From: a virus
IMG/VR virus record: IMGVR_UViG_3300036859_000196
Location: 1 to 48,217 of that record
Reading direction: 5' to 3' (one strand)
DNA length: 48,217 nucleotides
Part shown: positions 1,880 through 47,527 of the stretch, one piece after another
Position numbering within the stretch: position 1 is the first letter of the stretch
Layout: the number at the start of each line of letters is the position of its first letter
Notes under the pieces: model-generated
Seen by the model: only the letters and a program-made list of their open reading frames with translations
Told to the model about the DNA's origin: nothing
Databases searched by the model: none
Program-made: the position numbers and the translations under genes

Positions 1880-3166
1880 ATGGTTCTCCCCCGGCTTGCC
1901 CCCCGCCAGCGCATGGAGCGGGCGGCCTCGGTGCGCCTGGTCGTTGCCCTGGAGACCGCGCTGGAGCGGAACCTCGCCCGCACCATCGTCGCCATCGGCC
2001 GCAACGCCATGTCACGCTACGTCGCCGGCGGCGATCCTGCCGCCGTTGATGCCGTTGATATGTCAACAATCGGCCGCGTGCTCGCCCCATCGCTCCGCAA
2101 CACGGCGCGGGTGTTCGGCCGCGCCCTCGTATCGAAATCGACAGACATCGGCATCGAGACCAAGGCCTTCGAGGATCTCGATGCCGGCGTCGAGGAGTTC
2201 CTTCGCGCGCACACGGCCGACCGCGTGGTTCAGATCTCCGACGCCCTGAAGCGCATCATCACCAACATCATCCGCGACGGGTTGGAGGCCAACCGCGGCG
2301 TCGAGGAGGTGGCCCAGGCCATCGTCGAGGCCACGTCCGGCACCATGGCCATGGCCAGAGCCCGGCGCATCGCCCGCACCGAGACGCACATGGCGGCCAA
2401 TGCCGGCCAGCTCGCCGCCGCCCGCGCATCGCCGCTGCAATGGCGTAAGGAGTGGCTCGCCACCGAGGACCAGCGCACGCGCGAGGACCACGCCGAGGCC
2501 AACGGGCAGACGGTCGACCTTGACGAGCCGTTCATCGTCGGCGGCGAGGAGATGATGATGCCGGGCGATCCGAATGCGCCGCCCGAGCAGACCATAAATT
2601 GTCGGTGTGCAGTTCTTTACAGCCCGATCGCCGCGGTGCAGCGCCCCGATGATGATGAAGCCGGCGGCGTCGAGCTCAACGACCTGCTCACCGATCCCGA
2701 CCTGTGGCGCGCGTTCTTCCAGCAGTTGGAGGAGCGCAACGCCCTGCCGGCCGACGTCGTGCTCTACGCCACCGGCGAGGCGTGCGGCCTGCCGCAATTC
2801 GCGTCCGCCGATGACATCGAGATAGGGAGTGAACTCGTCACCCCGCGCTCAGCGAGCATGAACCCCATCTTGGTCAATGCCGGCGCGGGGCTGCCCGATA
2901 CTTTCCCGCTCTACGGACGCCCGGTGGTCGTGAAGATCGCCGCGCCGGCCGGCACGCCGGCGGAGAGCGGCGCCACGATCGCCATGGAGGTGAAGCTCCG
3001 TGAGGACGTGCGCATCGTCGTCACCGCCGTGACCGAAGAGCGCTGGGGCGAGGCGCAGGACGAGGCCGGCGTCGAACGCGACCGTCCGCGTGCCCGCTAC
3101 CGCCATCAACGCATGCCCGCGAGGCGAGGCATCACATTGGTTGAAGCAGAGGTTCAGACGAAATGA
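1880..3166 (+). CDS. Head morphogenesis protein (Mu gpF / SPP1 gp7-like)
   Basis: Motifs ARTETHMAANAGQ, TEDQRTREDHAEANGQTV, INCRCAV typical of Phage_Mu_F domain. Confidence 0.7.
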   Translation: MVLPRLAPRQRMERAASVRLVVALETALERNLARTIVAIGRNAMSRYVAGGDPAAVDAVDMSTIGRVLAPSLRNTARVFGRALVSKSTDIGIETKAFEDLDAGVEEFLRAHTADRVVQISDALKRIITNIIRDGLEANRGVEEVAQAIVEATSGTMAMARARRIARTETHMAANAGQLAAARASPLQWRKEWLATEDQRTREDHAEANGQTVDLDEPFIVGGEEMMMPGDPNAPPEQTINCRCAVLYSPIAAVQRPDDDEAGGVELNDLLTDPDLWRAFFQQLEERNALPADVVLYATGEACGLPQFASADDIEIGSELVTPRSASMNPILVNAGAGLPDTFPLYGRPVVVKIAAPAGTPAESGATIAMEVKLREDVRIVVTAVTEERWGEAQDEAGVERDRPRARYRHQRMPARRGITLVEAEVQTK

Positions 3167-3879: not shown

Positions 3880-5226
3880 ATGCCTGATGGCGCAATCCCA
3901 ACCGAAGTGAAGGCCCTCTTCGACGACCTGCAGAAGACGCTCCTCGCCAACCGCACGAAGGCCGAGGAGTTGGAGAAGCAGGTCAAGAAGACCGGCGAAG
4001 ACGCTGTGACGAAGGCGGAGCTCAAGAAGACCGACGACGCCTTCGAGGCCCTCAAGACGAAGATCACCGACGAGATCAACGCGCTTCACAAGAAGGCGTC
4101 CCGTCCCGTCGTGGCGCAGGTCACCGACGCCAAGTCCGCGGCGCTGGAGACCAAGGCTAATGCCGAGTTCGGCCGCTGGATCACGCCCGCCGGACATGCG
4201 GTGGACGTGACCAAGGCCGGCGCGGCGCGCATTGAGTATTCCAAGGCCTTCGAGACCTACCTCCGCAAGGGCAAGGACGGGCTGAGCGACCTCGAAGCGA
4301 AGGCGCTGTCCGTCGGCAGTGCACCCGACGGCGGCTTCTTCGTCGAGCCGTTCCGCAGCCAGCAGATCATCGACAAGCTCTACGAGACGAGCGCCATGCG
4401 CGCGATCGCCTCGGTGATCTCCATCACCTCGAAGTCGGTGGAGTATCCCATCGACCGCGATGAAGCGACCACCGGCTGGGTCGGCGAGCAGTCCTCGCGC
4501 CCGGAGACCAACACGCCGCAGGTCGGCATGCTGGAGATCCCCGTGCACGAGCTCTACGCGCTGCCCAAAGCGACGCAGAACCTTCTCGACGACGCCGGCT
4601 TCAACGTCCAGTCCTGGCTCGATATGAAGGTGGCTGACGAGATGGGCCGCGAGGAGAACAAGCAGTTCGTCCTCGGCAACGGGGTCAAGCAGCCCAAGGG
4701 CTTCACGACCTACACGACCGCGGCGACGGCCGATGCCTCCCGAGCCTTCGGGACGCTGGAGCGCGTCAACACTGGCCAAAACGGCGCATTCAAGACGCTG
4801 GCCGCCGGCCCGCCTATCGTCAACCCGGCGGACGACCTGCTGGACCTGATCTACAAGTTCAAGTCCGGCTATCGCTCGCGTCTGCGCTGGGGCGGCACCA
4901 AGCTCACCCTGGGCGCGGTCCGCAAGTTCAAGGACCTCCAGGGCAACTACATATATGACGCCCGCCTAGGCGCCAACGGCATCATCGACACGGTGTTCGG
5001 CTATCCGTGGGACGAGCTCGCCGACATGGCGGACTACACCACGACCGGCGCGCTCGGCATCGCGCTCGCCGACTGGAAGCGCGGCTACCAGATCGTCGAC
5101 CGCCAGGGCATCCGCCAACTGCGCGATCCCTACACGTCGAAGGGCTACGTGCTGTTCTACACGACCAAGCGTGTCGGCGGCGGCGTGCTCGACAGCGACG
5201 CGATCAAGTTCATTCAGTTCAGCTGA
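3880..5226 (+). CDS. Major capsid protein (HK97 fold)
   Basis: 448 aa, N-terminal coiled-coil delta-like domain then capsid-like body; follows protease. Confidence 0.8.
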   Translation: MPDGAIPTEVKALFDDLQKTLLANRTKAEELEKQVKKTGEDAVTKAELKKTDDAFEALKTKITDEINALHKKASRPVVAQVTDAKSAALETKANAEFGRWITPAGHAVDVTKAGAARIEYSKAFETYLRKGKDGLSDLEAKALSVGSAPDGGFFVEPFRSQQIIDKLYETSAMRAIASVISITSKSVEYPIDRDEATTGWVGEQSSRPETNTPQVGMLEIPVHELYALPKATQNLLDDAGFNVQSWLDMKVADEMGREENKQFVLGNGVKQPKGFTTYTTAATADASRAFGTLERVNTGQNGAFKTLAAGPPIVNPADDLLDLIYKFKSGYRSRLRWGGTKLTLGAVRKFKDLQGNYIYDARLGANGIIDTVFGYPWDELADMADYTTTGALGIALADWKRGYQIVDRQGIRQLRDPYTSKGYVLFYTTKRVGGGVLDSDAIKFIQFS

Positions 5227-10918: not shown

Positions 10919-12778
10919 ATGCCCGACGCCAATCTCAATTTCCAGATCACCGGCGACGCATCGCAGTTCCGCGCGGCGCTGAACCAGGCGCAGACGGCAA
11001 GCCGGCAGACCGCGGAGGGCATGACGACCGCCTTCACGCGCGCGACCGAGAAGGTCGCCACGTCGGTGCGCGATCTCGGCCGCGGCATAGGGGGCGTCTT
11101 CGAGCAGGTCGCCCGCAACATCGGCCAGGCCGCGACGCAGTGGGGCGATCAATGGGCGGGCACGGCGCAGGGCGCTTTCAACTCGGTGTCGTCTGCCGCG
11201 CGCGGAATGATTTCCGCCGTGGCGGGGATCTTCGGCGGCGCTACCGCGCGCATGGCGGACATCGCACTCAACCTGTTTGCGCTGCCGTTCGAGAACGCCC
11301 TGGACCACGCGTCACGCGCCGCTGCGCGGTTCCTGCGAGACATCCCATCGGCATCCACCGCAAGCGCCGGGACGGGCATGAGCTACTTCGAGGCCAACCT
11401 TGCGGTGCTGCGCCGGGCCGTCAGATCGATGATGGGTCTGTCCGGCGGCCTCGGCGACAGGCCCCAAGCGTTCGAATTTGAGCAGGCCATGGCCGGGATC
11501 AATCCCGCGGGCACTAGCCAGTCGCCAATGGAGCGAATGGACCCGCTGCGGATGACGGAACTGGGCCGGACTTTCGGCCCAGCCGTTGCCAACCTCACGG
11601 GCCAGGCGCAGTTGGAGGAGCGCGCTGCCGCAGTGGTCGGCCAGACCGCGGGCGCCATTGCGAGGGCGCGCGCCGAATTGGAGCTGTGGCGCGCGCTGTG
11701 GCTTCAGGGCGACCGGGAGCCGAACGCCGATCAGGTTGCAGCCATGGAGGCAATCCTCAACCGGATCGCCAATGCTGCCGACGCGCGCCAATCGAACCAG
11801 GACAGACAGCAAGTGCTCGCGCAGATCCGGCGCGAGATCGAGATGGAGCGTGAGCGGGCGGACGCGATCAATCTGACCGCAGGCGCTCGTGCGCGGGAAC
11901 GCTCCGAGGCCATAGTCCGCGGCTTCCGCCAAGGCCGGGGCGGCCGAGGCGCGAACCTTCTCGAAGATGACGAGGTGCAGGCTGCGCTCGCGCGCAGGGA
12001 AGCCGCCGCCGACGCCGCCGCGCACACGCGCCTTGCGGCCGAAATGGGCCAGGCGGTGCAATTTCAGACCATGGCATTCGACCGCCAGCGCCAATCGATC
12101 GGGGCCACCGCCGGCGAGATGGCGCGGCTTCTGTTCGTGGAGCAGCAGCACCAGGCGGCGATCCGTGCTGGCGTGCTTCTGTCGGATGATGAAGCAGAGG
12201 CGATCAACCGCAACGCCGAAGCAATCGCTCAAAGGACGCAGGCGCTGACGCTCGCGAACGAGCAGTTCAGGCGGTTGTTGGACACCGGCCGCGTGGTTGC
12301 GAGCAGCCTGGAGAGCGCATTCGCCAAGTTCATGGACGGCACCAAGCAGAGCTGGCGCTCGCTCGTGAACGACCTCTCCAAGGACATGGCCAAGCTCGCC
12401 TTCCGGCAGCTGTTCATCAACACCCTGTTCGGCCAGGGCGCCGGCTCGTCCAACCCGCTGGGGCTATTCGGTCAGGTGTTCGGCGGCTTCCGCGCCGAGG
12501 GCGGCTCGGTGTCGGCCGGCACGTCCTACATGGTCGGCGAGCGCGGCCCGGAACTGTTCCGCCCGCGCCAGTCCGGCACCATCGTGCCCAACAGCGCCAT
12601 GCGCGGCGGCGACCCCGCAGTCATCAACATGCGCATCGACCTCTCCGGCGCGAACGGCGACGAGACCATCGCCCGCATCTCCGGCCAAGCGGCGCGCATG
12701 GCGGCGATGGCGGCGGTGCAGGAGAGCAACGCGGCGTTCCCCGCGCGACAGCGCCGGCTGCAGATGCTGGGGACGTGA
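10919..12778 (+). CDS. Tail tape measure protein
   Basis: 619 aa, Ala/Gln-rich helical; C-terminal FRAEGGSVSAGTSYMVGERGPELFRP typical of tape measure C-terminus. Confidence 0.8.
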   Translation: MPDANLNFQITGDASQFRAALNQAQTASRQTAEGMTTAFTRATEKVATSVRDLGRGIGGVFEQVARNIGQAATQWGDQWAGTAQGAFNSVSSAARGMISAVAGIFGGATARMADIALNLFALPFENALDHASRAAARFLRDIPSASTASAGTGMSYFEANLAVLRRAVRSMMGLSGGLGDRPQAFEFEQAMAGINPAGTSQSPMERMDPLRMTELGRTFGPAVANLTGQAQLEERAAAVVGQTAGAIARARAELELWRALWLQGDREPNADQVAAMEAILNRIANAADARQSNQDRQQVLAQIRREIEMERERADAINLTAGARARERSEAIVRGFRQGRGGRGANLLEDDEVQAALARREAAADAAAHTRLAAEMGQAVQFQTMAFDRQRQSIGATAGEMARLLFVEQQHQAAIRAGVLLSDDEAEAINRNAEAIAQRTQALTLANEQFRRLLDTGRVVASSLESAFAKFMDGTKQSWRSLVNDLSKDMAKLAFRQLFINTLFGQGAGSSNPLGLFGQVFGGFRAEGGSVSAGTSYMVGERGPELFRPRQSGTIVPNSAMRGGDPAVINMRIDLSGANGDETIARISGQAARMAAMAAVQESNAAFPARQRRLQMLGT

Positions 12779-14818: not shown

Positions 14819-15198
14819 CCGCGTTCCTCTCCCGCGCCGCCTCTCGCGGCTTCGTGTGGGGCGTGCACGACTGCATGCTGTTCGCGGCGGACTGGGCGCT
14901 GGCGCTCACCGGGCGCGATCCGGCGGCGGCATGGCGCGGTACCTACTGCTCCAAAGAGGAGGCCATAGTCATCATCCACGAGGCCGGCGGCATGATGCAC
15001 CTGATGCATCGCGCGCTGGGACTATGCGGTTGGGCCCCGGCCCCCGGCGACGAAGGTGATATCGCTCTCGTGCGGCGCTCGCACCACGCCGATCCGGCTG
15101 CGGCGGTTTGCGTCTCGCGGCAGCGCGTCGCCTTGTTGACACGCCGCGGCCTTGTCGTGAGCCACTGCCCGATCATGGATGCCTGGCGTCATGGCTGA
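14800..15198 (+). CDS. Phage cell-wall peptidase, NlpC/P60 family
   Basis: GTG 14800; motif RGFVWGVHDCMLFAADW with catalytic-like Cys. Confidence 0.6.
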   Translation: MAQDHLAAFLSRAASRGFVWGVHDCMLFAADWALALTGRDPAAAWRGTYCSKEEAIVIIHEAGGMMHLMHRALGLCGWAPAPGDEGDIALVRRSHHADPAAAVCVSRQRVALLTRRGLVVSHCPIMDAWRHG

Positions 15199-17386
15199 GA
15201 CCATCGGCTTCCTGATCCTGGCCGGCGCCGAGGCGGCCGGCGCCGCCGGCGCTGCGGCGGCTGGCGCTACCGTCATTCTGCCCGGCCTCACGGTGGCCAC
15301 GGCCGTGGGCACTGCGGCCATCCTCGGCGCCTCGATCGCGGTGGCGTTCGCCACCCAGCCGGAGGTGCCCAAGGCTTCGGACGGCTCGCAGCCCATCCGC
15401 CAGCCGATCCCGCCGCGTCCCTTCGGCTACGGGCGCACGCGCGTTGCCGGCGCCTACATGCTGTTCGAGGTCGACGACGCCGGGGAGAGCTGGGACGTGC
15501 TCGCCCTGCACCACGGCCGTATCGACAGCATCGTACACGTCTACCTTAACGATGACCTGGTCCAGCTCAGCCCGACCGGGTTCGTGAACGGACTCCTGAA
15601 CCTGCCCGACACCGACACGCGCTACAACCACAACGTCGGCAACCTCGTCCAACTCAAGTTCACCCTGGGGGCGGACTCCGAGACTGCGTTTGCTGATGTC
15701 GTGGCGGTCCTGCCGACGCTGTGGACCAGCAATCACCGCGGTGACGGCGTGGCCTCGCTGATGCTCCACTGCATCGACGTGAGCACAACCAATGTGCTCA
15801 AGAACTACCCTCGCGGCCTGCCGAAGCCCTCCGTGGTGGCGGACCTCTCCCCCATCTGGGACCCGCGCGACGGCGGCCAGGACCCAGACGATCCCGACAC
15901 GTGGGAGGTCTCGTCCAACCCGGTACTGCAGCTGCTCGACTATCTCACCAACGCCGACCGCGGGCCGGCGCTCGACTACGCGGCCCTGATCGAGCCGGTG
16001 ATCGACGAGTGGATGGCCGAGGCCGACATCTGCGACGAGATCGTCGACAAGGCCGACCTGTCAACCGAGCCGCGCTACAGGTCCGACGGCTGGGCGTTTC
16101 TTACCACCGACCCGGCCGAAGTGATCGGTGCCATCCTCAACGCGTGCGACGGATGGCTGGCAGAGAACGGCGACGGCACGCTCTCCCTGAAGGTCGGCCA
16201 GTACCGCGCGCCCGATGTCACCTTCACCGACGACCACATCGTCGGCTTCGCCATCGACAAGGGCGTCGCTGACGAGGAGATCGTCAACGAGGTGCAGTTC
16301 ACGTACACAGCCGCGCAGGCCAATTGGCGCGACGCGCCGGGCGTGTCGTTCCGCGACGAGGCCTCCATCTCCGAACTTGGCGTCTTGCGCTCGACGCGGC
16401 TCAGCCTCAACTGGGTGCAGAGCCATTCGCAGGGCCGCCGCCTCGCCAAGCGTGCGCTAGCCCGCCACACGGCGGCGGCGCGCGGCCAACTCATAACAAC
16501 GCTGTACGGGTTGCGGGCGCTGGGCGAGCGCTGGGTCAACGTGCGCTCGCGCCTGATCGCCGACCTCACCGACGCCGTCATCGAAATCACCAGGGTGCGC
16601 ATTGATCTTGCCAATGCCCGGCTCACCTTCGAGTGGACGCTCGTCAACCCCAACAGCGTCGATGCGTGGGACGAGGAGACCGAGGAAGGCGTCGCGCCGC
16701 ACTACTTCCCGGTGCCCACGAACGTCACTGCCGAGGACCACGGGGCCGGCAACGAGATCCGGGTGGACTTCGACGAGGTCGACCCGGCGCAGCCGTGGCT
16801 CTGGTACGCCATCGACTACCGCCTCGGCACCTCCGGGTCGTGGACGCGCGTGCTGCGCTTTGCCGAGGAAGACCTCACGACGCTCGGCGGCGGGCGCGTC
16901 CGTCTCACCACCGACGCAGTGTCTCCCGGCGCCTACTCGGTGCGCATCGCCGCCACAGGCCGGCAGCTGATCAACAGCAATCCATATTGGCGAGTGGGCG
17001 AGCCTGAGCTGGTTGAAGCCGCCACGACGGTCAACATCACCCTGTCTGGCGAGCAGACCATCGACGGCGTCGCCGTCATCGCGACCAACCGCGTGCTGGT
17101 CAAGGACCAGGCCACGCCGGCGAATAACGGCATCTACACGGTGGCAGTGGGTGCGTGGACTCGCGCCGCCGCCATGGACACCTGGGCCGAGACGGTCGGC
17201 ATCGTCGCCGACGTCGCCGCCGGCACGGTCAACGGCCGCACCAGGTGGGCCTCGACGACAAGCCCATCAGGAACGCTCGGGGTTACGGCCATCGAATTTG
17301 CTCTGATCGGGCCAGACCAGCTGGTCGATCCCGATCTGGTGTGGGCGCCCAGCGTCGACGGCTTCACCAACGTGGTCATCTCATGA
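15191..17386 (+). CDS. Host specificity / central tail fibre protein (GTA gp15-like)
   Basis: ~730 aa; C-terminal RVLVKDQATPANNGIYTV module. Confidence 0.6.
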   Translation: MAETIGFLILAGAEAAGAAGAAAAGATVILPGLTVATAVGTAAILGASIAVAFATQPEVPKASDGSQPIRQPIPPRPFGYGRTRVAGAYMLFEVDDAGESWDVLALHHGRIDSIVHVYLNDDLVQLSPTGFVNGLLNLPDTDTRYNHNVGNLVQLKFTLGADSETAFADVVAVLPTLWTSNHRGDGVASLMLHCIDVSTTNVLKNYPRGLPKPSVVADLSPIWDPRDGGQDPDDPDTWEVSSNPVLQLLDYLTNADRGPALDYAALIEPVIDEWMAEADICDEIVDKADLSTEPRYRSDGWAFLTTDPAEVIGAILNACDGWLAENGDGTLSLKVGQYRAPDVTFTDDHIVGFAIDKGVADEEIVNEVQFTYTAAQANWRDAPGVSFRDEASISELGVLRSTRLSLNWVQSHSQGRRLAKRALARHTAAARGQLITTLYGLRALGERWVNVRSRLIADLTDAVIEITRVRIDLANARLTFEWTLVNPNSVDAWDEETEEGVAPHYFPVPTNVTAEDHGAGNEIRVDFDEVDPAQPWLWYAIDYRLGTSGSWTRVLRFAEEDLTTLGGGRVRLTTDAVSPGAYSVRIAATGRQLINSNPYWRVGEPELVEAATTVNITLSGEQTIDGVAVIATNRVLVKDQATPANNGIYTVAVGAWTRAAAMDTWAETVGIVADVAAGTVNGRTRWASTTSPSGTLGVTAIEFALIGPDQLVDPDLVWAPSVDGFTNVVIS

Positions 17387-31120: not shown

Positions 31121-31936
31121 CTAGGTCGGTTCACATGAACCGACCAACGTCCGCGTATCCGAGAAGCGGGGGGGGGCCGCAGGGGTGCTGGCGAGTTCAC
31201 CCACCATCCACTTCGCGGCATCGGCCTTGATCTGCTCGAACACGACGGGGTGCTGGCTCTTGAAGTCCGGCATGCGCGACGACGCCACGTATCCCTGCGC
31301 GGTCGCGTCGAGCCAAATCTGCGTCCAGCGCGCCGCGTCGAGTCCGAGCAGTTTGAAGTCGCGTCGCGTCACGGGTCTCCGCTCCAGAATGGCAACGATC
31401 TTGAGCGCCTTGATCTTCCACGCCGTCAGTTGGACCGGGGCACTATGGCCGGCGCCGCTGTCGGGGACATAGTCAGGGAGGGCGACCCGCTTCACCGGGC
31501 ACCACTCGTGCCAATGTCGGTCATCGCCCCAGCGCTCGGCGACGTGCGGCAGATCGGGTTCGAACCTGCGGCGGTAGACCCGCTCGGACGGTGGCCATAT
31601 CGTTATCACAGTGAGTCCGAGCCAGTTGCAGATCGTGCCGAGCCCGTTCTGCTTTCCTCCTTCTGGCACCAGCACGGCACGACAATCCGGGCCGATCTCG
31701 GCGGCTCCGTACCAACGTTCGGGCAGCGCCTGCACCGCCACCGTGTTGTTGAGGATGAGCTTGGCCTCGATGCCAATCTGGAAGCCGTCTTCCCTGCGAA
31801 CGAGCAGGATGTCCCAGCCGCCAGTCTCGGCATACGCAACCCAGGCGTCACCCTTTGTGACCTGCGTGATGAACTCGGCGCAGAGCGCGACCTCGCTCTC
31901 GAAACCGGGCTTGCGGGATCGCTTCGTGGCCGTCAT
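31121..31936 (-). CDS. Hypothetical protein with PD-(D/E)xK nuclease-like motif
   Basis: Starts at ATG overlapping integrase stop; motif DILLVRREDGFQIGIEAKL; G9 tract encodes PPP near C-terminus. Confidence 0.45.
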   Translation of the reverse strand: MTATKRSRKPGFESEVALCAEFITQVTKGDAWVAYAETGGWDILLVRREDGFQIGIEAKLILNNTVAVQALPERWYGAAEIGPDCRAVLVPEGGKQNGLGTICNWLGLTVITIWPPSERVYRRRFEPDLPHVAERWGDDRHWHEWCPVKRVALPDYVPDSGAGHSAPVQLTAWKIKALKIVAILERRPVTRRDFKLLGLDAARWTQIWLDATAQGYVASSRMPDFKSQHPVVFEQIKADAAKWMVGELASTPAAPPRFSDTRTLVGSCEPT

Positions 31937-33039
31937 TCCCTGCCCCGCTTGTCCTCGATCGCCTTCGGCTCCCGCAGCGACAGCGCATTCGCCGCGCGCT
32001 GCAGGTAGTCCGGGTGGAAGCGCGCATAGACGCGCTCGGTGATCGCCGTGGAAGTGTGGCCCATGTACTGGCTGATCTCCGCCATTGGCAGCCGGGCCTG
32101 GGCCATCCAGACACCGGCGGTGTGGCGGAGCACGTAGGGTGTGACATCGTCGAGCTTGGCGCGGCGTGCGGCAGCCACGATGGCCTGGCGCACGCCCTGG
32201 CGGCCAGTGATGGGAGCCTCGTTGTACTCGATTACCCACTCGGTCTGAGCCATCTCGCGCGCCAGCTTTAGCGTCTCATAGGCCTCCTCATTGAGCGGCA
32301 CGCGAGCGCGGCCCTTGCGGGTGGCATCGCGCTCCGGGTCGTCGAGGTTCACGTGACCGAAGTAGGTGACCCCGCTCTGGGGGTGCGTCCACTTCTTGAG
32401 CGTGACGCGGTCCCATGTGAGCTGCAGGATGTGGCTCGGCCGGCCGGCGGTGGCGAACGCCAGCTGCAGCCACACCTTGACGTGGAACGCCTTGGCGGCG
32501 TCGATCAGTCGGACGGCCTCAGCCTTGGTCAACCACCGCTCACGCGGCCGGGCTGCCGGCGGGCGCTCGATCTCCGGACGGTCGCCTGAATAGAGCTTCT
32601 TCCGCTTGCCAAAGCCGAGCGCCGCAGAGAGATAAACCAGCTCGGACCGGATGCCGCCGTTCGACACCCCATGACCGCGCCGATGCCTGGCATAGGCCCG
32701 GCAGGTGGTGTCCTCGATCTGGTCCGGCATCAGGTGCCCGAAGTGTGATGCCATCGGTTTCCAGGCCTCGCGCATGCGGCGCGCGTCCTTGCCGACCGCC
32801 TCGCGGTCCTTGACGTACAGGTCGTAGATCGAGGCCATGGCAACCGCCTTCCCGTCTTTCCCCTGGCGCTGTGCCTCGGAGAGGCCGCTGTTCCAGCGCG
32901 CTACCTCGCGGTCAGCATCCGGCCGATTGCCCGTTGTCGCTTTGATGCCGAGCGCATGGCGCTGTTTGCTGCGTCCATGCCCCCAGACGACGCACCAGAC
33001 GCCGCGGTGTCGTCCGCGCCTGTAGACTTGATCCCCCAT
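31933..33039 (-). CDS. int: Tyrosine integrase
   Basis: N-terminal RGVWCVVWGHGRSKQRHALG arm-type region; C-terminal VLRHTAGVWMAQA...YMGHTSTAITERVYARF catalytic region. Confidence 0.85.
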   Translation of the reverse strand: MGDQVYRRGRHRGVWCVVWGHGRSKQRHALGIKATTGNRPDADREVARWNSGLSEAQRQGKDGKAVAMASIYDLYVKDREAVGKDARRMREAWKPMASHFGHLMPDQIEDTTCRAYARHRRGHGVSNGGIRSELVYLSAALGFGKRKKLYSGDRPEIERPPAARPRERWLTKAEAVRLIDAAKAFHVKVWLQLAFATAGRPSHILQLTWDRVTLKKWTHPQSGVTYFGHVNLDDPERDATRKGRARVPLNEEAYETLKLAREMAQTEWVIEYNEAPITGRQGVRQAIVAAARRAKLDDVTPYVLRHTAGVWMAQARLPMAEISQYMGHTSTAITERVYARFHPDYLQRAANALSLREPKAIEDKRGRE

Positions 33040-33233
33040 CGCACCAGCAACGCCTCCAGATCCTCGCGCCTCACGCGCACCATGCCGTCGATCCGAACCA
33101 CGGGTAGGCCCGTGCCGGGTTGATCCTTCTCGCGCTCGATCAGCGCGTAGACCTTGCTCTTCGAGCAATCGAGCTCCCGCGCGACGCTGCGGACCGAGAG
33201 AAGACGCGGCGGCAGAACTGCGGTGTCGGTCAT
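32901..33233 (-). CDS. xis: Excisionase / AlpA-like HTH protein
   Basis: LLSVRSVARELDCSKSKVYALIE...LPVVRIDGMVRVRREDLEALL; 3' end overlaps int start. Confidence 0.5.
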   Translation of the reverse strand: MTDTAVLPPRLLSVRSVARELDCSKSKVYALIEREKDQPGTGLPVVRIDGMVRVRREDLEALLVRWGIKSTGADDTAASGASSGGMDAANSAMRSASKRQRAIGRMLTAR

Positions 33234-33451
33234 GGCCCCGCCCTCTCATAGACCCGCGCCAGCTCGGCCCGCGTATAGGCCCCGTCGTAGCGGTCGCTCG
33301 CGGCGTCGACGACCCGGCAGCCCGCCTCGAATTCACGCATCTCGCGGCGGTGCATCCACCACAGCATCGCAAGGCCGCCAGCGAGACCGACGACGCAGCC
33401 GACGAGGCCGCCAAGGGCGCCGACGGCGAGAAGGATCGGATCGAAAGTCAT
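33230..33451 (-). CDS. Small membrane protein
   Basis: Hydrophobic N-terminus ILLAVGALGGLVGCVVGLAGGLAMLWW. Confidence 0.4.
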   Translation of the reverse strand: MTFDPILLAVGALGGLVGCVVGLAGGLAMLWWMHRREMREFEAGCRVVDAASDRYDGAYTRAELARVYERAGP

Positions 33452-35778: not shown

Positions 35779-36285
35779 TCATCCCAACCTGACCTGCAAT
35801 GTCTGACCACCGTTGCTCAGTTCGGCGCCTGGGATGGCTTTGCCGTCCTTCAGCGCGGCGAGAACGGCGCGCCTGTCGAGCTTCGGTGTTTGCGTGACCT
35901 TGAAATCGTCAGGGATCGCCGCCTCGTCCGTGATCACCAGCGACGGCGGCACGGCCCGGCACGACACGGTGCCGAGCGGCGTCTCCAGCCGCTGCAGGCC
36001 GCCGACCTCCATGGCCGTGAGTAGAGCGGCACGGATGCGCTCCTCCTGATCCTCCAGCCGCTTGCCGCGCTCACCCAGGACGCTGAGCGTCGCGTTGATC
36101 CCGCTGACCAGCGCGCGGATCTCGACGATGCGCGCCAACGCGTGCCGAATGGCGTCGTGCAAGTCGGTGCTGCCCTCAACCATGTCGCGCTGCAGAATGT
36201 CGTCGTTCTCCAGGTCCAGCGCGAACATGGCCAGAAGCGCGCGCGCCGCATCAATCTGGGTACGCAATTCGCCGGCCGCGCTCAT
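35779..36285 (-). CDS. Hypothetical coiled-coil protein (Gp157-like by position next to recombinase)
   Basis: 168-aa ORF upstream of RecT-like gene. Confidence 0.35.
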   Translation of the reverse strand: MSAAGELRTQIDAARALLAMFALDLENDDILQRDMVEGSTDLHDAIRHALARIVEIRALVSGINATLSVLGERGKRLEDQEERIRAALLTAMEVGGLQRLETPLGTVSCRAVPPSLVITDEAAIPDDFKVTQTPKLDRRAVLAALKDGKAIPGAELSNGGQTLQVRLG

Positions 36286-36515
36286 CGCCCGCCCCCGTTC
36301 AGCTCAATGTCGATCGCCGTGATCACCGGGTTGCCCGGCCAGAGCGGAATGCTCTCGCGCGCCACCTTGAGCAGGTGCCGCAGGCGCCTGTTCTCGGCCT
36401 TGAGCTTGCCGACGTGGTAGTTGATGGTGTCGATGCTCCCGAGAGCGCGCAGATATGCGGCGTCTGCCGGCGTCGGGGACGCGGGCGGGTCGGTCCGCAG
36501 CTCACTGATGGTCAT
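36282..36515 (-). CDS. Hypothetical protein
   Basis: Internal Met MTISELRTD... of ORF 36282..36704. Confidence 0.35.
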   Translation of the reverse strand: MTISELRTDPPASPTPADAAYLRALGSIDTINYHVGKLKAENRRLRHLLKVARESIPLWPGNPVITAIDIELNGGGR

Positions 36516-36799
36516 TACACGGTCTCCTTCTCTGCGCGCTGCTTCGCGACGTTCTCGGCCCACTCCGCGCTGATCTCGACGTACTTCGTCTGCTGCAGGT
36601 GCAGAGCGATGCGCGTGTAGAGCGGATCGTCCTGGGCAAGGGCGACCGATGCGTCGCCAGCGCCCTTCTTCCACCCGTACAGGTCGATGCCGGCGATGTG
36701 CCAACCGCTGCCATCGCAGCGATCGATGCGCGCGGTGCCCTCGTAGAGCGCGATCTCCACGTCTCCGCGCGTCTCTGGAAAATCGAAATTATGGAGCAT
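36515..36799 (-). CDS. Hypothetical protein
   Basis: ATG 36799 with GGAGGAAGG RBS. Confidence 0.45.
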   Translation of the reverse strand: MLHNFDFPETRGDVEIALYEGTARIDRCDGSGWHIAGIDLYGWKKGAGDASVALAQDDPLYTRIALHLQQTKYVEISAEWAENVAKQRAEKETV

Positions 36800-36947
36800 G
36801 CCTTCCTCCCGTTCAGATGTGCGGGCGCGGCCCGCCGTCGAAACCGCGCCCGCCTTGGCTCTCGGGTTGCATTGCGGAGCCCCCGAGAACCAACGCCCTG
36901 CCCTCGCCCCGCTGACCGGGGGCACGGGTGAAACTCCGTGCTGGTTG

Positions 36948-37793
36948 CTATGCGGTCTCAATCAACTCGATCACCTTGTCGGCCATTTTTGTCCACGCCG
37001 CGCTCCACGCCGCGCTCCACGCCGCGCTCTCCGCGCTCCACGCCGCGCTCTCCGCGCTCCACGCCGCGCTCTCCGCGCTCCTCGCCGCGCTCTCCGCGCT
37101 CCTCGCCGCGCTCCTCGCCGCGCTCGCCGCGCTCCTCGCCGCGCTCTCCGCGCTCCACGCCGCGCTCCACGCCGCGCTCCACGCCGCGCTCTCCGCGCTC
37201 ATCGCCGCGCTCCACGCCGCGCTCTCCGCGCTCATCGCCGCGCTCCTCGCCGCGCTCGCCGCGCTCCTCGCCGCGCTCCTCGCCGCGCTCCTCGCCGCGC
37301 TCGCCGCGCTCCTCGCCGCGCTCCTCGCCGCGCTCTCCTCTGGACGTGCGCCCTTGCACATCGGCAAGAGAACGTCAGCACACTGACGCACAGCGTCCCG
37401 CACCAGATCATGCTCGATGCCTGGATTGACGCTGCTGTCTGTCAGCAGCCAATGCAGAAAGCGCCAGCCCACGCAGGACAGATCGGCGCCGGGGCGGATC
37501 GCGCGCATGAAACGCTCGGGCCACGCCTGAGCGGCGCCATTCGGCAGGCCTTCAAAGATCGAGTCTTCCAGGTGTGCCAGCATCACCGGGATGCCGAAGC
37601 GCGTCTCGTACTCCACGTGGTTGTCGCTGTAGAGCGTGCAGCCGACCGCGCACCCCTTGCCGTTCTGCCAATACTGGCCCTTGATGATCTCGTCGGCGGC
37701 GCGGTGGCGGGCGAGTTGGGCCAGGATGTCGATCTTGGCCTGGGGGTCGCCGTGGTAGGCCTGCATCGGGGTGCTCTCCTGCAATGGCGGCAT
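36948..37793 (-). CDS. Protein with globular N-terminal domain and ~29 tetrapeptide repeats
   Basis: Repeats SAAR/SAAW/SAES/SAAS/SAAM encoded by 12-nt units; likely start ATG 37766 (AGGAGA RBS). Confidence 0.55.
   Translation of the reverse strand: MPPLQESTPMQAYHGDPQAKIDILAQLARHRAADEIIKGQYWQNGKGCAVGCTLYSDNHVEYETRFGIPVMLAHLEDSIFEGLPNGAAQAWPERFMRAIRPGADLSCVGWRFLHWLLTDSSVNPGIEHDLVRDAVRQCADVLLPMCKGARPEESAARSAARSAASAARSAARSAARSAASAARSAAMSAESAAWSAAMSAESAAWSAAWSAAWSAESAARSAASAARSAARSAESAARSAESAAWSAESAAWSAESAAWSAAWSAAWTKMADKVIELIETA
36990..37340. repeat. Tandem array of ~29 imperfect 12-nt repeats
   Basis: Units like GCGCTCCACGCC / GCGCTCTCCGCC; all six frames open across the array. Confidence 0.85.
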
Positions 37794-38392
37794 GACGCGG
37801 GAACTCCGGGGACGAATGACTGATGTAGGCCAAGCTAAGGGGAAATCTCCCCCATGTCAATTAATATCTGGGAACTTTCCCCCACTCCTTGCTGAGGCGT
37901 GACCATTCTGCCACGATCAGCACGCGGGGCATTTGGCAGTGTGAGGGGTATGCAATGTTGGTGCGCGTTTCGTTGTTGCTGCTATTGTCGACCTGGTGCG
38001 GTCCATCGCTCGCGCAAGACGCCCGCCTCGACGAAGCCATCAAAGCCGAGCGCAGGGCGGTGCACGATGCGATCAATCTGGCCCAGGAACCGCTGCGGCG
38101 CTTCAGGGCGCCAAAGCCAGCCGGATTGCGCGTCAAAGGACCTCAACGACGCGATCGTATTTAGTCAGGGCATCATCTCTGCTCTGGTGCAGAAGCCAGG
38201 CAACTTGGACCCGACGTTATTCCTGGAGCTTGGGGCGTCTGCGCTTGACGTCGGCGATGGGGCGCGCATAGCGGGTTGCCGCGAGGACGCTCGCAAGATG
38301 TACGACTACGTCATCAGGGTGTTTGTCGGGGGCGCCTATGCCGGCCTGCGCCAGCGGGCGCAGATCGGCATCGATGATCTCCGCGCGGCGCG

Positions 38393-38839
38393 CTAACGCC
38401 CGCCGCGTCGGACCCAGGTTATCGGCGCGGCCCAATCGATCAAGACGTTTTCCATGGGCCGCGACAAGGGGTTATAGGACCGCAGCGTGTAGCGATCCGG
38501 CATAGTGCCCTTGTCGAGGATCTTAATCAGCGTCTCGCCGTCGTCGGTCCGCAGCGCGCAGTCGAGCCCGATCAGGTTGTCGAGATACTTGCCGGCCCGT
38601 CTCTGGCAGAACAGCTGATCGCCGTCGCGATACGTGGGCGACATCGAGTCGCCGCGAACCTCGATTGCAAAGGCTCCCGACCCCGCCTCGAAAGCGAAGT
38701 CGGCCACCTCGGGCGGGCGGCCCTTTGTCGGCTCCTGGAAGGGCGTCCAGCGCTCCGCGCCATTTGCAATGCCCACCAGCGGGATCTGGAGCTGGAAGCG
38801 CTCGTCGCCCGACAAGAGCATCATGGGGTGCACGTCCAA
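38393..38839 (-). CDS. S24 (LexA/CI-type) peptidase domain, probable C-terminal part of a frameshifted CI-like repressor
   Basis: VRGDSMSPTYRDGDQLF (Ser) and TLIKIL (Lys); HTH-like sequence continues upstream in this frame and in the neighbouring frame. Confidence 0.65.
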   Translation of the reverse strand: MDVHPMMLLSGDERFQLQIPLVGIANGAERWTPFQEPTKGRPPEVADFAFEAGSGAFAIEVRGDSMSPTYRDGDQLFCQRRAGKYLDNLIGLDCALRTDDGETLIKILDKGTMPDRYTLRSYNPLSRPMENVLIDWAAPITWVRRGGR

Positions 38840-39081
38840 GACGTGGGCCAGCTTGACGAACTTATCGATGCTTGGATCGTGGCCGCGATTGAGCCAGTCA
38901 CGCGCCCCCCAATCTTTAGCGACGCCTCCCGCATGCTCATGCCCTTCTGCTTGAGCAGCCGGAGGGCGCGCCTGCGCCAGTCCAAGTCCATGGCGACGCG
39001 GTAGGGGCTTTTTCCATCGTGCACAATCCTTGAGGGAAATTTGCCCTTGTCATAGGGGTTTTTTCCCCCTATAAGGCGGTC

Positions 39082-39297
39082 ATGAGCGAAGCGCAATCCT
39101 TCCTGGTCGAGATCGAAAAGTTTCTTGTGCGCACGGGCATGACGCCCGCGGCGTTCGGCAAAAGGACGGCCAACGATGGCAAGTTCGTCGATCGGCTGCG
39201 GCGCGGCGGTCAGGTGACCTTGGGCACTGCCGAACGTATCCGCGAGTTTATCGCTGGGTACGAGGTGCCGCGCGAGCGGCGGCGTCGGGTGGCTTAA
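39082..39297 (+). CDS. Cro-like small regulator
   Basis: 71-aa ORF divergent from repressor; GMTPAAFGKRTANDGKFVDRLRRGGQVTLGTAERI. Confidence 0.4.
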   Translation: MSEAQSFLVEIEKFLVRTGMTPAAFGKRTANDGKFVDRLRRGGQVTLGTAERIREFIAGYEVPRERRRRVA

Positions 39298-39623
39298 CCA
39301 TGTGGCGTACTCCGGGCAACCGAGTGCGCCAGTTGCGTTTGTTGCACCAACCTCCAGCTTGGCCCGCACGCGCCAAGCTCCCGAGGTTGACCCTGCAACG
39401 TGTGCGTGCTGCGGCGCAAGTGGGGAATTCCACAGCCCGCCGATAGTCAGTTGCGATGTGTCTGAAATCGCACAGTCCCCGTAGCGTTCCATTGCGTCGG
39501 TGGCGGTCAGCCGGGCCGAAGAGGTCGCCCGCCGCGTGGCGGCGGGCGCGGATTGAAACACGTTGCTGCGCGTTGCTTCACGTTGCGTCCAGAGTCACCT
39601 CAACGCACCGCAAGGGACTGCGC

Positions 39624-41074: not shown

Positions 41075-41338
41075 ATGGCGCTGAGGTTCATCGACCTTGC
41101 GATTGCCAAGGGCGACCTCAAATTCGGCTACGGAGCAATCGCCGCTCATCTGGAGATCATGACCGGCGAGGAACACACGGTCGGCATGGTAGCGGGATTG
41201 CTCGACAGAGAAGGGAAGCGTAGGCCGCATGAAAAGCAGAAGCCCCCGGCTGCTGACCGCCGAGGGCTTCGAGAACTGAGTAACCCGTCCCGGCAAGGAG
41301 GATCACACATGGACACCAAGGAGGCATCCGATGCCTGA
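41075..41338 (+). CDS. Hypothetical protein
   Basis: Internal Met MALRFIDLAIAKGDLKFGYG... of ORF 41054..41338. Confidence 0.3.
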   Translation: MALRFIDLAIAKGDLKFGYGAIAAHLEIMTGEEHTVGMVAGLLDREGKRRPHEKQKPPAADRRGLRELSNPSRQGGSHMDTKEASDA

Positions 41339-42305
41339 TGAAATAGAGGCAAACGGCGGCAAAAGCAAGGCCCCCAAGCGGAAATCCACGCGCGATAGCG
41401 ACCTTTGGTACAAGCGCTACCCGGCTCGGTTCCGCAGAGACACGATGCACGATCATCCGATGCCGTTCGATCTGCGATGCCAGTGGAGCCTGCTGACCGA
41501 TCTGTTCTACGAGCACGGCGGTCCGCTGCTGAATGACGACCGATGGGTCGCTCTCCAGTTCGGCTGCGACGTGCGCAAATGGAAGCATATCCGCGCGCAG
41601 CTTTTCGCTCATGGGAAACTAACCATCGGCCCCGACGGATTGATCCACAACAAGACCGCCGACGAGGTGATCGGCGAGCGCGCCGACAAGCTCGTAAAGA
41701 CTGCCGTTGCGCCAGCAAGACGACGCCTCGGGAAGGGCGCGACCCCTGCCAGTACCCCTGCCACTACCTCGGTCGGTAGTCCCCCCGGTAGTCCCCCCGG
41801 TACTGGCGCCGATCTTTCCGAAAAGCCCAATGATATCAACGAAGGCGCGCAAAAAACGGCCGGAGACACGCGCGCGTCTTTAGATCTTCCTTCGGAAGAG
41901 AGAAGAGAGATAGAGAGAAGAGAGATCCAGACTCGTCCTTTTTCCTCTGTTGCTGCGCGTGAGGAAAAGGACGACGAGCGCAGGGTCGTTTTTGAAAACG
42001 GCAAGATCGAACTGTTCAACGGGATGCGAGCCTATTGGCTCGATCGGTTCGATGGTGACGGCGACCGACTGGAACTTGGTCTGATCCAGGCAGCGGCGTT
42101 CGTGCAGTCCAACTCGTCACGCCCCATCGAAGCGCAGGTCAGCGCGCAGCTCGCCCGGCAGTGCGCCGAGAGGCACGACCGCGACAAGCGGTACGCGGCC
42201 GCAGCTGACCGCAAGGCGGCAACCAACCCCGCGTCGGGTACAGACCCGCTGATGTCACCCAAACGCGCCCGTGCGCTCGCTGCCTACCAGGAGATGTTCG
42301 GATGA
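41331..42305 (+). CDS. Replication initiation protein (DUF1376/YdaU-like N-terminal domain)
   Basis: WYKRYPARFRRDTMHDHPMPFDLRCQWSLLTDLFYEHGGPL; internal repeats and AT-rich patch. Confidence 0.55.
   Translation: MPDEIEANGGKSKAPKRKSTRDSDLWYKRYPARFRRDTMHDHPMPFDLRCQWSLLTDLFYEHGGPLLNDDRWVALQFGCDVRKWKHIRAQLFAHGKLTIGPDGLIHNKTADEVIGERADKLVKTAVAPARRRLGKGATPASTPATTSVGSPPGSPPGTGADLSEKPNDINEGAQKTAGDTRASLDLPSEERREIERREIQTRPFSSVAAREEKDDERRVVFENGKIELFNGMRAYWLDRFDGDGDRLELGLIQAAAFVQSNSSRPIEAQVSAQLARQCAERHDRDKRYAAAADRKAATNPASGTDPLMSPKRARALAAYQEMFG
41895..41930. repeat. Two tandem ~15-bp direct repeats inside the replication gene, iteron-like
   Basis: AGAGAAGAGAGAT-AGAGAGAAGAGAGAT with adjacent CTTCC..GGAAG inverted repeat and T-run. 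Confidence 0.35.
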
Positions 42306-45654: not shown

Positions 45655-46245
45655 ATGGCCAGCAAGCAGAAGTCCCGCTCGAAGTCCGCACCGAAGGCAA
45701 AGCCCGCGAACAGCTCCAAGCGGAGCCGCGGCAGGCCAAGCGACTTCAAGTCGGAGTTCTGCGATCAGGCCGAGAAGCTGTGCAAGCTCCTCAACGCCGA
45801 CGATCTGGCGCTCGCGGCCTTCTTCGAGAAGGACGTCGCCACCATCAACCGATGGAAGAAGGCGCACGCTGAATTCCGCGCGTCGATAAAAAGGGGGAAG
45901 ATCGCGGCCGACATCGAGGTCGCGCACAGCTTTCATGAACGCGCCCGCGGCTACGAGTGGCAAGAGGCCGTGCCGATCAAGCTGAAGACCGTCGAGTACC
46001 ACGATGGCAAGCGGGTCAAGGAGAGCGAGCGCGTCGAGATCGTCATGGTCACAAAGCGCCAACCTGCGGACGTGACGGCGGGCATCTTCTGGATGAAGAA
46101 CCGACAGCACGAGACGTGGCGCGACAAGCACGATCACGCGCACTCCGGCGCCGTCGATGTGAACCTCACAGAGGTACGCGGTGGAATTGCGGGCAAGCTC
46201 GATCGCATCGCTTCCGCCCTCGAAAAGGCAAGCGTTCCTCGATAG
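45655..46245 (+). CDS. terS: Terminase small subunit
   Basis: Basic N-terminus then RGRPSDFKSEFCDQAEKLCKL..DVATINRWKKAHAEFRASIKRGK HTH-like region. Confidence 0.65.
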   Translation: MASKQKSRSKSAPKAKPANSSKRSRGRPSDFKSEFCDQAEKLCKLLNADDLALAAFFEKDVATINRWKKAHAEFRASIKRGKIAADIEVAHSFHERARGYEWQEAVPIKLKTVEYHDGKRVKESERVEIVMVTKRQPADVTAGIFWMKNRQHETWRDKHDHAHSGAVDVNLTEVRGGIAGKLDRIASALEKASVPR

Positions 46246-47527
46246 CCTGAGCGGCGACGAGCTCGCCCACATCGAGCACGACTGGCGCTTCTGGGCTCGC
46301 GACGAGCAACTCGCACCGCCGGGCCTGTGGCGCATATGGCTGCTGCTGGCCGGACGCGGCTTCGGCAAGACCCGCGTCGGTGCCGAGTGGTGCCACGAAC
46401 GCGCCGCCGAGTCCGTCTGCCGCATCGCCATCGTCGGCGCCACGATGGACGACGCCCGCAAGATCTGCGTCGATGGCGAGTCCGGCATCATGGCGTGCGC
46501 CAAGCCGTGGTTCCGCCCGACCTTCGAGCCGTCGAAGAACGGCGGCACGGTGACGTGGCCCAACGGCTCGCTGGCCGAACTCTACTCGGGCGAGAAGCCG
46601 GACGGCCTGCGCGGGCCGCAGTTCCATGCGGCGTGGCTCGACGAGCTGCTGAAGTGGCGCCGCATGCAGGCGGCCTGGGACATGCTCAGGTTCGCGCTGC
46701 GGCTTGGCACTCACCCGCGCACCGTGATAACCACCACGCCGACGCCAGCGAAGCTGATCAAGGACCTGGTCAATGACAAGCGCACGGGGGCGGACGGTTT
46801 GCCCATGGTGCGCGTAGTGCGCGGCTCGACCTACGCCAACGCCGCCAACCTATCGGCCGACGCCCTCGACGAACTGCGCACCAAGTACGAGGGCACCCGC
46901 CTCGGCCGGCAGGAGCTGTTCGGCGAGATCCTCGAAGACCGCCCCGGCGCGCTCTGGACATATGCCAACATCGACGAGCACCGCATCAATGACCCGGAAC
47001 AGGTCCCCAAGCTTGAGCGCACCATCGTCGCCATCGATCCTCCCGTCACTTCGGGCGAGGATGCCGACGAGTGCGGCATCGTCGCCGCCGGGCGGGGGCC
47101 GCACTCGCACGCCTACGTGCTCGGCGATGCGTCCGAGCGGGGCCTCTCGCCTAAGCAATGGGCTCAGAAGGCGCTTCGGCTTTACCACGACACCGGTGCG
47201 GGCCTGATCGTCGCCGAGGCCAACAACGGCGGCGAGATGATCAAGCACGTGATCAACACCGAGGCGCCGGAGGTCAAGGTCAAACTGGTGCACGCTAGCA
47301 AGGGCAAGGTCACCCGCGCCGAGCCGGTGTCGAGCCTCTACGAGCAAGGCCGAGTGCACCACGTCGGCACCTTCAAGGCGCTCGAAGATCAGCAAACTGA
47401 CTTTACTGTGGATTGGGACCGCGACGTGATGGGCTACTCGCCCGACCGCGTCGACGCCCTGGTGTGGGCGATCACCGAACTGATGCTGGCCAACCGCGCC
47501 CGCGGCGGCCTTGTGGGGACGTTCTGA
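46181..47527 (+). CDS. terL: Terminase large subunit (GTA-like family)
   Basis: N-terminal LSGDELAHIEHDWRFWARDEQLAPPGLWRIWLLLAGRGFGKTR (Walker A-like); GTG start overlapping terS. Confidence 0.85.
   Translation: MELRASSIASLPPSKRQAFLDSLSGDELAHIEHDWRFWARDEQLAPPGLWRIWLLLAGRGFGKTRVGAEWCHERAAESVCRIAIVGATMDDARKICVDGESGIMACAKPWFRPTFEPSKNGGTVTWPNGSLAELYSGEKPDGLRGPQFHAAWLDELLKWRRMQAAWDMLRFALRLGTHPRTVITTTPTPAKLIKDLVNDKRTGADGLPMVRVVRGSTYANAANLSADALDELRTKYEGTRLGRQELFGEILEDRPGALWTYANIDEHRINDPEQVPKLERTIVAIDPPVTSGEDADECGIVAAGRGPHSHAYVLGDASERGLSPKQWAQKALRLYHDTGAGLIVAEANNGGEMIKHVINTEAPEVKVKLVHASKGKVTRAEPVSSLYEQGRVHHVGTFKALEDQQTDFTVDWDRDVMGYSPDRVDALVWAITELMLANRARGGLVGTF

Follow-up and report, generated by a model that had tools for sequence, protein, structure and literature searches.

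A stretch of viral DNA of 48,217 nt (IMG/VR record IMGVR_UViG_3300036859_000196, positions 1 to 48,217; the whole stretch is hereafter called the window) belongs to a temperate, siphovirus-like phage and carries on its minus strand, at 36948-37793, a gene that contains a long array of very short in-frame repeats. We consider it probable, if well short of assured, that this is a translated accessory gene whose product combines a conserved N-terminal head, an evolvable Ala-rich helical hairpin and a C-terminal helix. The evidence comes from a head and tail that are conserved in the frame of the array, from residue spacings that follow the period of the α-helix, from a predicted structure, and from arrays that differ among relatives with identical or nearly identical flanks.

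Reading frame and repeat units

The gene, its parts and the open reading frames (ORFs) that overlap it are as follows.

36948-37793, minus strand: repeat-gene ORF, 281 aa (from the ORF list)
Start at the second ATG, 37766, minus strand: likely true gene, 272 aa (homologues start MxAYH, aligned with M10)
37335-37766, minus strand: N-terminal head, all-helical, residues 10-153 (from relatives and AlphaFold2)
36993-37334, minus strand: repeat array, 342 nt, 114 aa, 31 in-frame units (21 of 12 nt and 10 of 9 nt)
36948-36992, minus strand: C-terminal amphipathic helix TKMADKVIELIETA and stop codon, a motif conserved in the family
36798-37823 (plus), 36928-37386 (plus), 36938-37429 (plus) and 36958-37359 (minus): by-product ORFs over the array

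The ORF and its array are present as a first-pass annotation of the letters had described them (ORF list; Tandem Repeats Finder, TRF). The second ATG is probably the real start, because homologues begin at the equivalent position and a ribosome-binding site, AGGAGAG (37774-37780), lies 7 nt upstream of it. The non-repetitive N-terminal part is thus 153 aa long from the first ATG and probably 144 aa long from the second; the annotation had correctly separated such a domain from the array, and had put its length too low, at about 130 aa. Head, array (114 codons) and tail lie in a single frame, and because the conserved head and the conserved tail share that frame, the array is read as translated into SAAx/SAx peptide. 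The coding frame originally chosen is borne out by 857 relatives of the head and by the conserved tail, and 36948-37793 is, to judge from this conservation, a genuine translated gene.

Of the six frames, only the minus-strand +1 frame is interrupted in the array region, where each of the two SAAM units creates a TGA codon; the original statement that every frame on both strands is open needs correction for this one frame. Because the other five are open, the four overlapping ORFs are by-products of the array, in agreement with the earlier view that it generates artefactual ORFs.

When the array was parsed codon by codon into units, five types were found.

SAAR: 10 copies of 12 nt, AGCGCGGCGAGG
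SAAW: 9 copies of 12 nt, AGCGCGGCGTGG
SAAM: 2 copies of 12 nt, AGCGCGGCGATG
SAE: 7 copies of 9 nt, AGCGCGGAG
SAA: 3 copies of 9 nt, AGCGCGGCG

The array had been described as about 29 tetrapeptide units, imperfect and shuffled. It consists instead of 31 units, 21 tetrapeptides and 10 tripeptides, and the 'SAES' and 'SAAS' of that description arise where a tripeptide was joined to the Ser that opens the following unit. Nor are the units imperfect in the usual sense: all copies of each of the five types are identical in DNA, with zero synonymous variation; expansion, contraction and shuffling are borne out in relatives (see below). TRF reports a single outstanding array at 36992-37338, with scores of 401 for a period of 12, 276 for 21 and 429, the highest, for 33; the next-best tandem array in the window scores 73. 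Codon use in the array is nearly uniform (Ala GCG, 55 of 57; Ser AGC, 31 of 31), in contrast to the mixed codons of the gene's own head, and about 48% of the array residues are Ala.

Protein family and predicted helical hairpin

The head has 857 relatives at E ≤ 1e-3, with 60-75% identity (best 74%), and an exhaustive search of 50%-identity cluster representatives with the head gave 3,195 matches, 2,091 of them at E ≤ 1e-10. All of 121 aligned sequences have H30, C48 and C52, and nearly all have H59 and C138 (GKGCAVGC ... H) and an acidic LEDxIFEGLP motif; H30, C48, C52 and H59 possibly mark a metal (Zn) site. Family members share one architecture, in which a head ending ..QCADVLxPLTKGxPxD is followed by an Ala-rich array of variable length and a closing ..SAAYVxMADKLIELIEAA. 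What had been noted as a short C-terminal tail, TKMADKVIELIETA, matches this conserved closing helix. Among 168 complete members, 79% have an array of at least 30 aa, and the Ala-rich stretch of the window protein is the second longest (median 58.5 aa, range 0-151). Domain fusions were not found; long members are those with longer, degenerate or frameshifted arrays. In five alphaproteobacterial members (L010, L011, L012, L015 and L016) a non-repetitive Ala/Ser-rich segment with loops (SGIDVLPDAVAWSAESAALAAESAALSGIDPAASAERAV) replaces the array, and this subgroup may retain the ancestral, non-expanded state.

The head represents a new, undescribed family, and the array module, although known-looking, is uncharacterised. 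No Pfam, NCBIfam, PHROG or PADLOC family was assigned to the window protein, to its head alone, to the homologues P0082 and phiXaf18 gp37 or to seven diverse members; the matches returned by the family searches are low-complexity noise, such as CDC27 (E 0.059) and phrog_8780 'minor tail protein', which covers the array only. The PDB holds no relative detectable by sequence or profile, and fold comparison of the head gave no match. A search for close relatives of the window gene found no exact protein on record, no IMG/VR match and a best metagenome match of 73%, and the INPHARED phages gave no DNA match. The annotation's statement that the function of the gene is unknown holds, in that no family, fold or conserved neighbour yields a function for the window protein.

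In the window array, successive Ser residues are spaced 4, 4, 3, 4, 4, 4, 3 and so on, with a mean of 3.67 residues (11/3) and a spectral peak at 3.65, and it is because this spacing averages 11/3 that TRF prefers a period of 33 nt (11 codons). With 4- and 3-residue units mixed at roughly 2:1, a Ser and a variable residue (Trp, Arg, Glu or Met) thus recur every 3.67 residues; on an α-helix they would form a near-straight stripe (a hendecad, 11/3), with the two Ala on the opposite face. Three-residue units are never adjacent in the window array and runs of 4-residue units never exceed three (P ~0.001 given the composition); even interleaving of the two sizes across the family is not significant (P = 0.14). 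The period itself is a family property: Ala periodicity is 3.59 ± 0.18 in 64 arrays and lies within 3.5-3.8 in 64% of them, compared with 5% of shuffles, and 40 Ser-type arrays (pooled 400:264) have a per-array 3/4 spacing of 3.59 ± 0.13.

An AlphaFold2 model of the window protein, built from the 121 aligned sequences, has a mean predicted local distance difference test score (pLDDT) of 88.5. The head is modelled as all-helical, mostly above 90; residues 153-210 and 217-280 form antiparallel helices (arms at 87-96) joined by a turn near residues 211-216 that is of low confidence at 211-214 (below 50), and the C-terminus scores 94-98. A short homologue with almost no array (P0082, 166 aa) also has its C-terminal helix modelled at 93-95. 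The array is accordingly predicted to be an antiparallel, Ala-packed helical hairpin of about 58 + 64 residues and about 9 nm, among the longest in the family, and the C-terminal helix is predicted to pack back onto the head; docked in this way, it would force the array to fold back as a hairpin. A test for charge complementarity between the two arms was negative at the family level.

The array might also form no hairpin, and lie instead as a long 11/3 amphipathic helix on a membrane interface or filament, or enter higher-order bundles between molecules. Amphipathic helices with 11/3 periodicity are typical of apolipoproteins, α-synuclein and LEA (late embryogenesis abundant) proteins, and Trp, Tyr and Arg favour membrane interfaces; the periodicity of the array, its Trp/Tyr/Arg content and the low confidence of the AlphaFold2 turn would all fit such a helix. 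We nevertheless hold it improbable, given that the non-polar face is Ala only, that the translation has no signal peptide or transmembrane segment, and that two independent models dock the conserved C-terminal helix on the head with confidence.

Array turnover and its possible role

Comparison of repeat number among relatives reveals large differences between otherwise matching sequences. In four protein pairs whose heads are 100% identical over the last 125 residues, the arrays differ by 4, 13, 42 and 44 residues, and in two pairs of loci whose flanks are 97-99% identical in DNA (L070/L071 and L072/L073) they differ by 126 and 132 nt; the arrays of these four loci share the AGC-GCG-GCG-NNG unit of the window. 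Fast turnover is not universal: the array does not vary inside either of two groups of cultured Xanthomonas phages, phiXaf18/KPhi1/MYK3 (284 aa) and XapPhi/NEB7 (327 aa), while the two groups have entirely different arrays. The linear records of XapPhi1 (L055, PP391659.1) and XapPhi2 (L059, PP391660.1) stop inside the Ala-rich array, leaving the gene truncated and unannotated, and in XapPhi4 and XapPhi6 the gene is intact but unannotated. Among metagenome-derived homologues, four (L035, L048, P0143 and P0247) change frame inside the array and, every frame being open there, continue as RRG.. or ERGVERG.., and one locus (L033) has an N-run; the in-array frame shifts are either assembly or sequencing errors or real frameshift variants, and inflate the apparent protein length.

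Array codons differ by lineage, with TCG/GCG in L001 and L049, TCT/GCT in L024, TCA/GCA in L047 and GCC in L028, and the third codon base inside arrays is uniform up to 96%. The variable residues follow these dialects: G-type arrays have W, R, E and M, whereas Y, D and V are found in arrays of the T/C type. Arrays also occur in genomes of 38-45% GC, G-rich ones at 43% and T-type ones in other genomes. Array DNA is thus homogenised within lineages through repeated amplification from few units, and since array length and order change far faster than the flanks mutate, the combination bears the signature of slippage or unequal recombination. The peptide design, rather than the DNA, is what selection keeps, because independent lineages use different codons yet retain an Ala scaffold with aromatic, basic and acidic residues.

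The proposed explanation joins these observations to the predicted structure. Identical units of 9 and 12 nt would recombine by slipped-strand mispairing or unequal recombination, every event remaining in frame. The C-terminal helix would clamp the base of the hairpin to the head, and because units could be added or lost without disturbing this base, hairpin length would be free to vary. Ridges of aromatic and charged residues displayed by the hairpin could then serve as a rapidly evolvable interaction or oligomerisation surface of an early, stand-alone, host-directed protein; a possible task would be to bind or neutralise a host factor or defence effector, parallel to the role proposed for Imm5-type proteins. 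By this analogy, and with low confidence, we suggest that the gene product is an early accessory protein directed at the host, with a binding stalk that can evolve rapidly.

The main rival holds that the array is a neutral, slippage-prone spacer: head and C-terminal helix would be functional, and between them a microsatellite derived from poly-Ala would have expanded in a tolerant linker, its surface residues having no specific role. Several observations agree with this. Array length ranges from about 0 to 151 aa in the complete members, P0082 having almost none; arm-to-arm charge complementarity is absent; the near-uniform third codon base suggests an origin as a GCN trinucleotide repeat; and the residues at the variable position are largely reachable by single-base steps within each codon dialect. 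A purely neutral linker is harder to reconcile with the retention of an array of at least 30 aa in most members, including phages of low-GC hosts in which GCN-rich DNA is unfavoured, with the maintenance of α-helical periodicity, with the repeated presence, at the variable position of independent codon dialects, of aromatic, basic and acidic residues (W/E vs Y/D; Trp makes up 5% of array residues), and with the recruitment of this array type behind at least three unrelated heads. We judge this rival to be a minority possibility, though one to be taken seriously.

The same codon dialects bear on a role at the DNA level, in which the array would act as iterons or an origin of replication, as a row of protein-binding sites or as a hotspot of recombination, with coding secondary. 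The plus strand does carry 31 copies of an identical 7-nt core, CCGCGCT, with strong GC skew, in an early region near recombination genes. The units, however, are wholly different by lineage (AGCGCGGCG, TCGGCGGCG, TCTGCTGCT and TCAGCAGCA) while peptide pattern and period are conserved, the neighbouring genes are not conserved, and a better origin candidate lies in another gene of the window (see below); a DNA-level role is therefore extremely unlikely.

Searches with the array and tail alone recovered the same arrays behind other heads, assigned by Pfam to Imm5_like (PF21805), Imm5 (PF14423), DUF6931 (PF22011) and DUF7666 (PF24703). These proteins are encoded on phage-sized contigs among early and replication genes, and pooling 78 such proteins gives a Ser spacing of 3.66. 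The marine (TARA) phage contig L070 has an Imm5_like array gene and a member of the window family in one early block (205-843 and 2501-3121). On a wider and more speculative view, Ser-Ala-Ala-X arrays would be a self-expanding 'evolvability cassette', a contingency locus for counter-defence at the protein level that is carried by many unrelated early phage proteins. Proteins with GKGC-type, Imm5_like, DUF6931 and DUF7666 heads would use it to diversify a helical binding surface against host defence or toxin effectors, and the 9- and 12-nt sizes would have been selected because their mixture reproduces the α-helix period. We consider this generalisation unlikely as it stands.

If the proposed explanation is true, a simple, fast-mutating helical module is common to a very large number of early phage proteins of wide taxonomic spread (3,195 clusters at 50% identity for this head, together with the Imm5_like, DUF6931 and DUF7666 sets), with variability built into the DNA by identical in-frame 9- and 12-nt units and geometry held by the 4:3 unit ratio. 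Such arrays would be a new and easily recognised marker of phage genes under rapid host-driven diversification and would give a way into the function of the Imm5-like 'predicted immunity' families. Arrays of this kind open five or six frames, break assemblies and shift frames in metagenome-derived proteins, so that false ORFs and shortened genes are to be expected in annotation. Because cultured Xanthomonas phages have homologues (phiXaf18 gp37, KPhi1 K1pha_60 and XapPhi/NEB7), the question can be tested directly.

Genome setting and comparison with known systems

ORFs of the window and neighbours of the repeat gene were scanned with PHROGs or Pfam profiles (the scan was not exhaustive), and the following genes and sites were recorded.

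11-1501: portal gene
3880-5226: major head protein
10919-12778: tape measure
15179-17386: J-like tail protein
31933-33414, minus strand: integrase
35779-36285, minus strand: Sipho_Gp157/Mu-Gam-like gene
37832-37860, minus strand: promoter-like site, TTGACA-17 nt-TAGCTT, 39 nt upstream of the first ATG (read from the sequence; a weak call)
37839-37852: palindrome GGGGAAATCTCCCC, overlapping or flanking the promoter-like site, candidate operator
37869-37882: palindrome TGGGAACTTTCCCC, overlapping or flanking the promoter-like site, candidate operator
38393-38839, minus strand: CI-like Peptidase_S24 repressor
39055-39068: palindrome GGGGTTTTTTCCCC in the intergenic region between the repressor and the rightward genes, candidate operator
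46181-47527: large terminase

The repeat gene lies between the CI-like/Peptidase_S24 repressor and the Sipho_Gp157/Gam-like and integrase genes, all on the minus strand. It is downstream of the CI-like gene, from which a 600-bp region separates it, and heads a leftward run of a small ORF, the Sipho_Gp157/Gam-like gene, unknowns, a GntR-like gene and the integrase. From this position we infer early expression, in line with the first-pass annotation, which had called the gene early. The genes around it are repressor-like, Sipho_Gp157/Gam-like, GntR, integrase and unknowns, with no toxin gene or polyimmunity locus; no defence profile in PADLOC-DB is matched by the repeat gene or by seven neighbours (E ≤ 0.01), and Rfam gave no match at 36000-39500.

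Upstream of the gene, a scan with the σ70 consensus found no promoter at threshold, and the −10 hexamer of the promoter-like site matches at 3 of 6 positions. The palindromes have the form GGGGA-N4-TCCCC, a related one also occurring at about 39033-39047. Of 4 sites that a pattern search matched in the window, 3 lie here; chance would give 2.0, so that the count alone is not significant, and the palindromes are read as candidate operators because they cluster at two divergent control regions. Together with the promoter-like site they are weakly suggestive of an operator-controlled early promoter and of lysogeny-switch operators.

The CI-like repressor (38393-39010, minus strand) is apparently split by a frameshift at about 38905-38910, in a C6/G6 run; a helix-turn-helix (HTH)-like N-terminus (MDLDWRRRALRLLKQKGMSMREASLKIGG) stands in one frame, and DWLNRGHDPSIDKFVKLAHVLDVHPMM followed by the Peptidase_S24 domain in another. 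Either a homopolymer sequencing error or an inactivated repressor would account for the split. Between the repressor and the repeat gene, on the opposite strand, an ORF at 37953-38396 (plus) has a signal-peptide-like start (MLVRVSLLLLLSTWCGPSLAQ) and seems to run on in another frame (FLELGASALDVGDGARIAGCREDARKMYDYVIRVFVGGAYAGLRQRAQIGIDDLRAAR). Neither PHROGs nor PADLOC gave a match for this ORF, which may encode a secreted 'moron' protein with another frameshift. Two neighbouring genes with apparent frameshifts call for caution over the sequence quality of the window.

This uncertain quality is one reason to consider that assembly may have created the array, or at least the exact number and order of its units; others are the XapPhi1 and XapPhi2 records that end in the array, the N-run of L033 and the frame shifts of L035, L048, P0143 and P0247. 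Hundreds of independent assemblies nevertheless show the same architecture, as do cultured phages with complete genomes, and the window array is in frame with both of its flanks. Mutagenic diversification of the kind driven by diversity-generating retroelements (DGRs) was weighed alongside. DGRs combine a reverse transcriptase with a template repeat; none of the ORFs covered by the non-exhaustive PHROGs or Pfam scan encodes a reverse transcriptase, and TRF found no second copy of the array elsewhere in the window that could serve as a template. Artefact and DGR-like diversification are both very unlikely.

In the ORF at 41331-42305 (plus strand; DUF1376, with a weak primosomal-protein PHROG match), the segments 41742-41807 and 41897-41926 hold a cluster of short direct repeats (ACCCCTGCCAGT/ACCCCTGCCACT) and a 21-nt imperfect inverted repeat, with two copies of a purine-rich stretch, AGAGAGAAGAGAGAT, after them. 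This cluster may be a replication origin inside an initiator-like gene.

Loci of relatives are phage or prophage early regions, near genes for RecT, RNase_T, exonuclease, methylases, DNA polymerase A, AAA_24, DUF669 and Sipho_Gp157, and in L072 and L073 the family gene is the first gene divergent from an HTH_3 gene. All-vs-all comparison of ORFs at 46 loci found, besides the family itself, no gene common to more than 3 loci. Bins with the gene belong to Alpha- and Gammaproteobacteria, Planctomycetota, Acidobacteriota, Actinomycetota, Bacteroidota, Chloroflexota and Patescibacteria.

Among systems to which the window protein can be compared, the nearest are the array-bearing Imm5_like, Imm5, DUF6931 and DUF7666 proteins, which are of similar size (170-230 aa) and have the same SAAW/SAAR/SAE(S) array, helical period and short amphipathic C-terminal helix. 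Imm5 is an immunity protein of polymorphic toxin systems, predicted by comparative genomics and mostly α-helical; its predicted targets are DYW-deaminase and CdiA-CT toxins, and it was suggested to be a scaffold that binds structurally different toxins (PMC3239186, PMC3482391). No experimental characterisation of function was found, in the literature searched, for the array-bearing Imm5_like, Imm5, DUF6931 or DUF7666 families. Unlike Imm5_like proteins, the window head has the GKGCAVGC and LEDxIFEGLP motifs and lacks YPxDxRPRKAIEAA. The window protein does not match PF21805 or PF14423 even at E ≤ 1, whereas the controls P0274, P0288 and P0292 do, and seven diverse family members have no Pfam match; homology of the heads was rejected by hhalign of 120 GKGC-type against 28 Imm5_like heads (probability 0.1%, E 0.59). 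An association with polymorphic toxins or polyimmunity is absent across the 46 related loci, which are phage early regions with no shared neighbour. By these comparisons the window protein is not an Imm5_like member and shares with that family only the array module, which may be homologous or convergent (low-complexity similarity).

Two other kinds of protein were considered and set aside. DksA and GreA, which act in the secondary channel, combine a globular domain (Zn-binding in DksA) with a coiled-coil hairpin; they were rejected because the length of their hairpin is fixed, against a more than five-fold variation here. A DNA mimic was rejected because the net charge of arrays ranges from acidic (L031, D-rich) to basic (the window, R-rich).

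The iterons of the lambda origin lie within gene O, and as in that gene the window has a tandem DNA repeat inside an early phage gene, between two protein domains. Unlike gene O, the window family conserves the peptide and not the DNA, the gene does not appear to be a replication initiator, and a separate iteron-like cluster is present elsewhere in the window, in the DUF1376/primosomal-like gene.

Ala-rich antiparallel helical hairpins are known from 'Alacoil' packing and from the flounder antifreeze protein 'Maxi', which has an 11-residue periodicity. The window array resembles them in its Ala content, its 11/3 periodicity and its predicted long, two-helix antiparallel hairpin; there is no sequence or fold match, however, and a Trp/Arg/Glu stripe stands in place of Thr/ice-binding motifs, so the analogy would be structural only.

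In-frame coding repeats that resemble variable-number tandem repeats (VNTRs) occur in helical and coiled-coil proteins such as the streptococcal M proteins, and periodic repeats occur in phage tape-measure proteins. The window family shares with VNTR-type coding repeats units that are multiples of 3 nt and nearly identical in DNA, a number and order that vary between relatives while the flanks stay constant, and an elongated helical product, which for the window protein is a prediction. Its units, in contrast to those of M proteins and tape measures, are far shorter (9 and 12 nt) and of two sizes mixed so as to match the α-helix period, and the protein would be small, cytoplasmic and early-expressed rather than a component of the cell surface or the virion.

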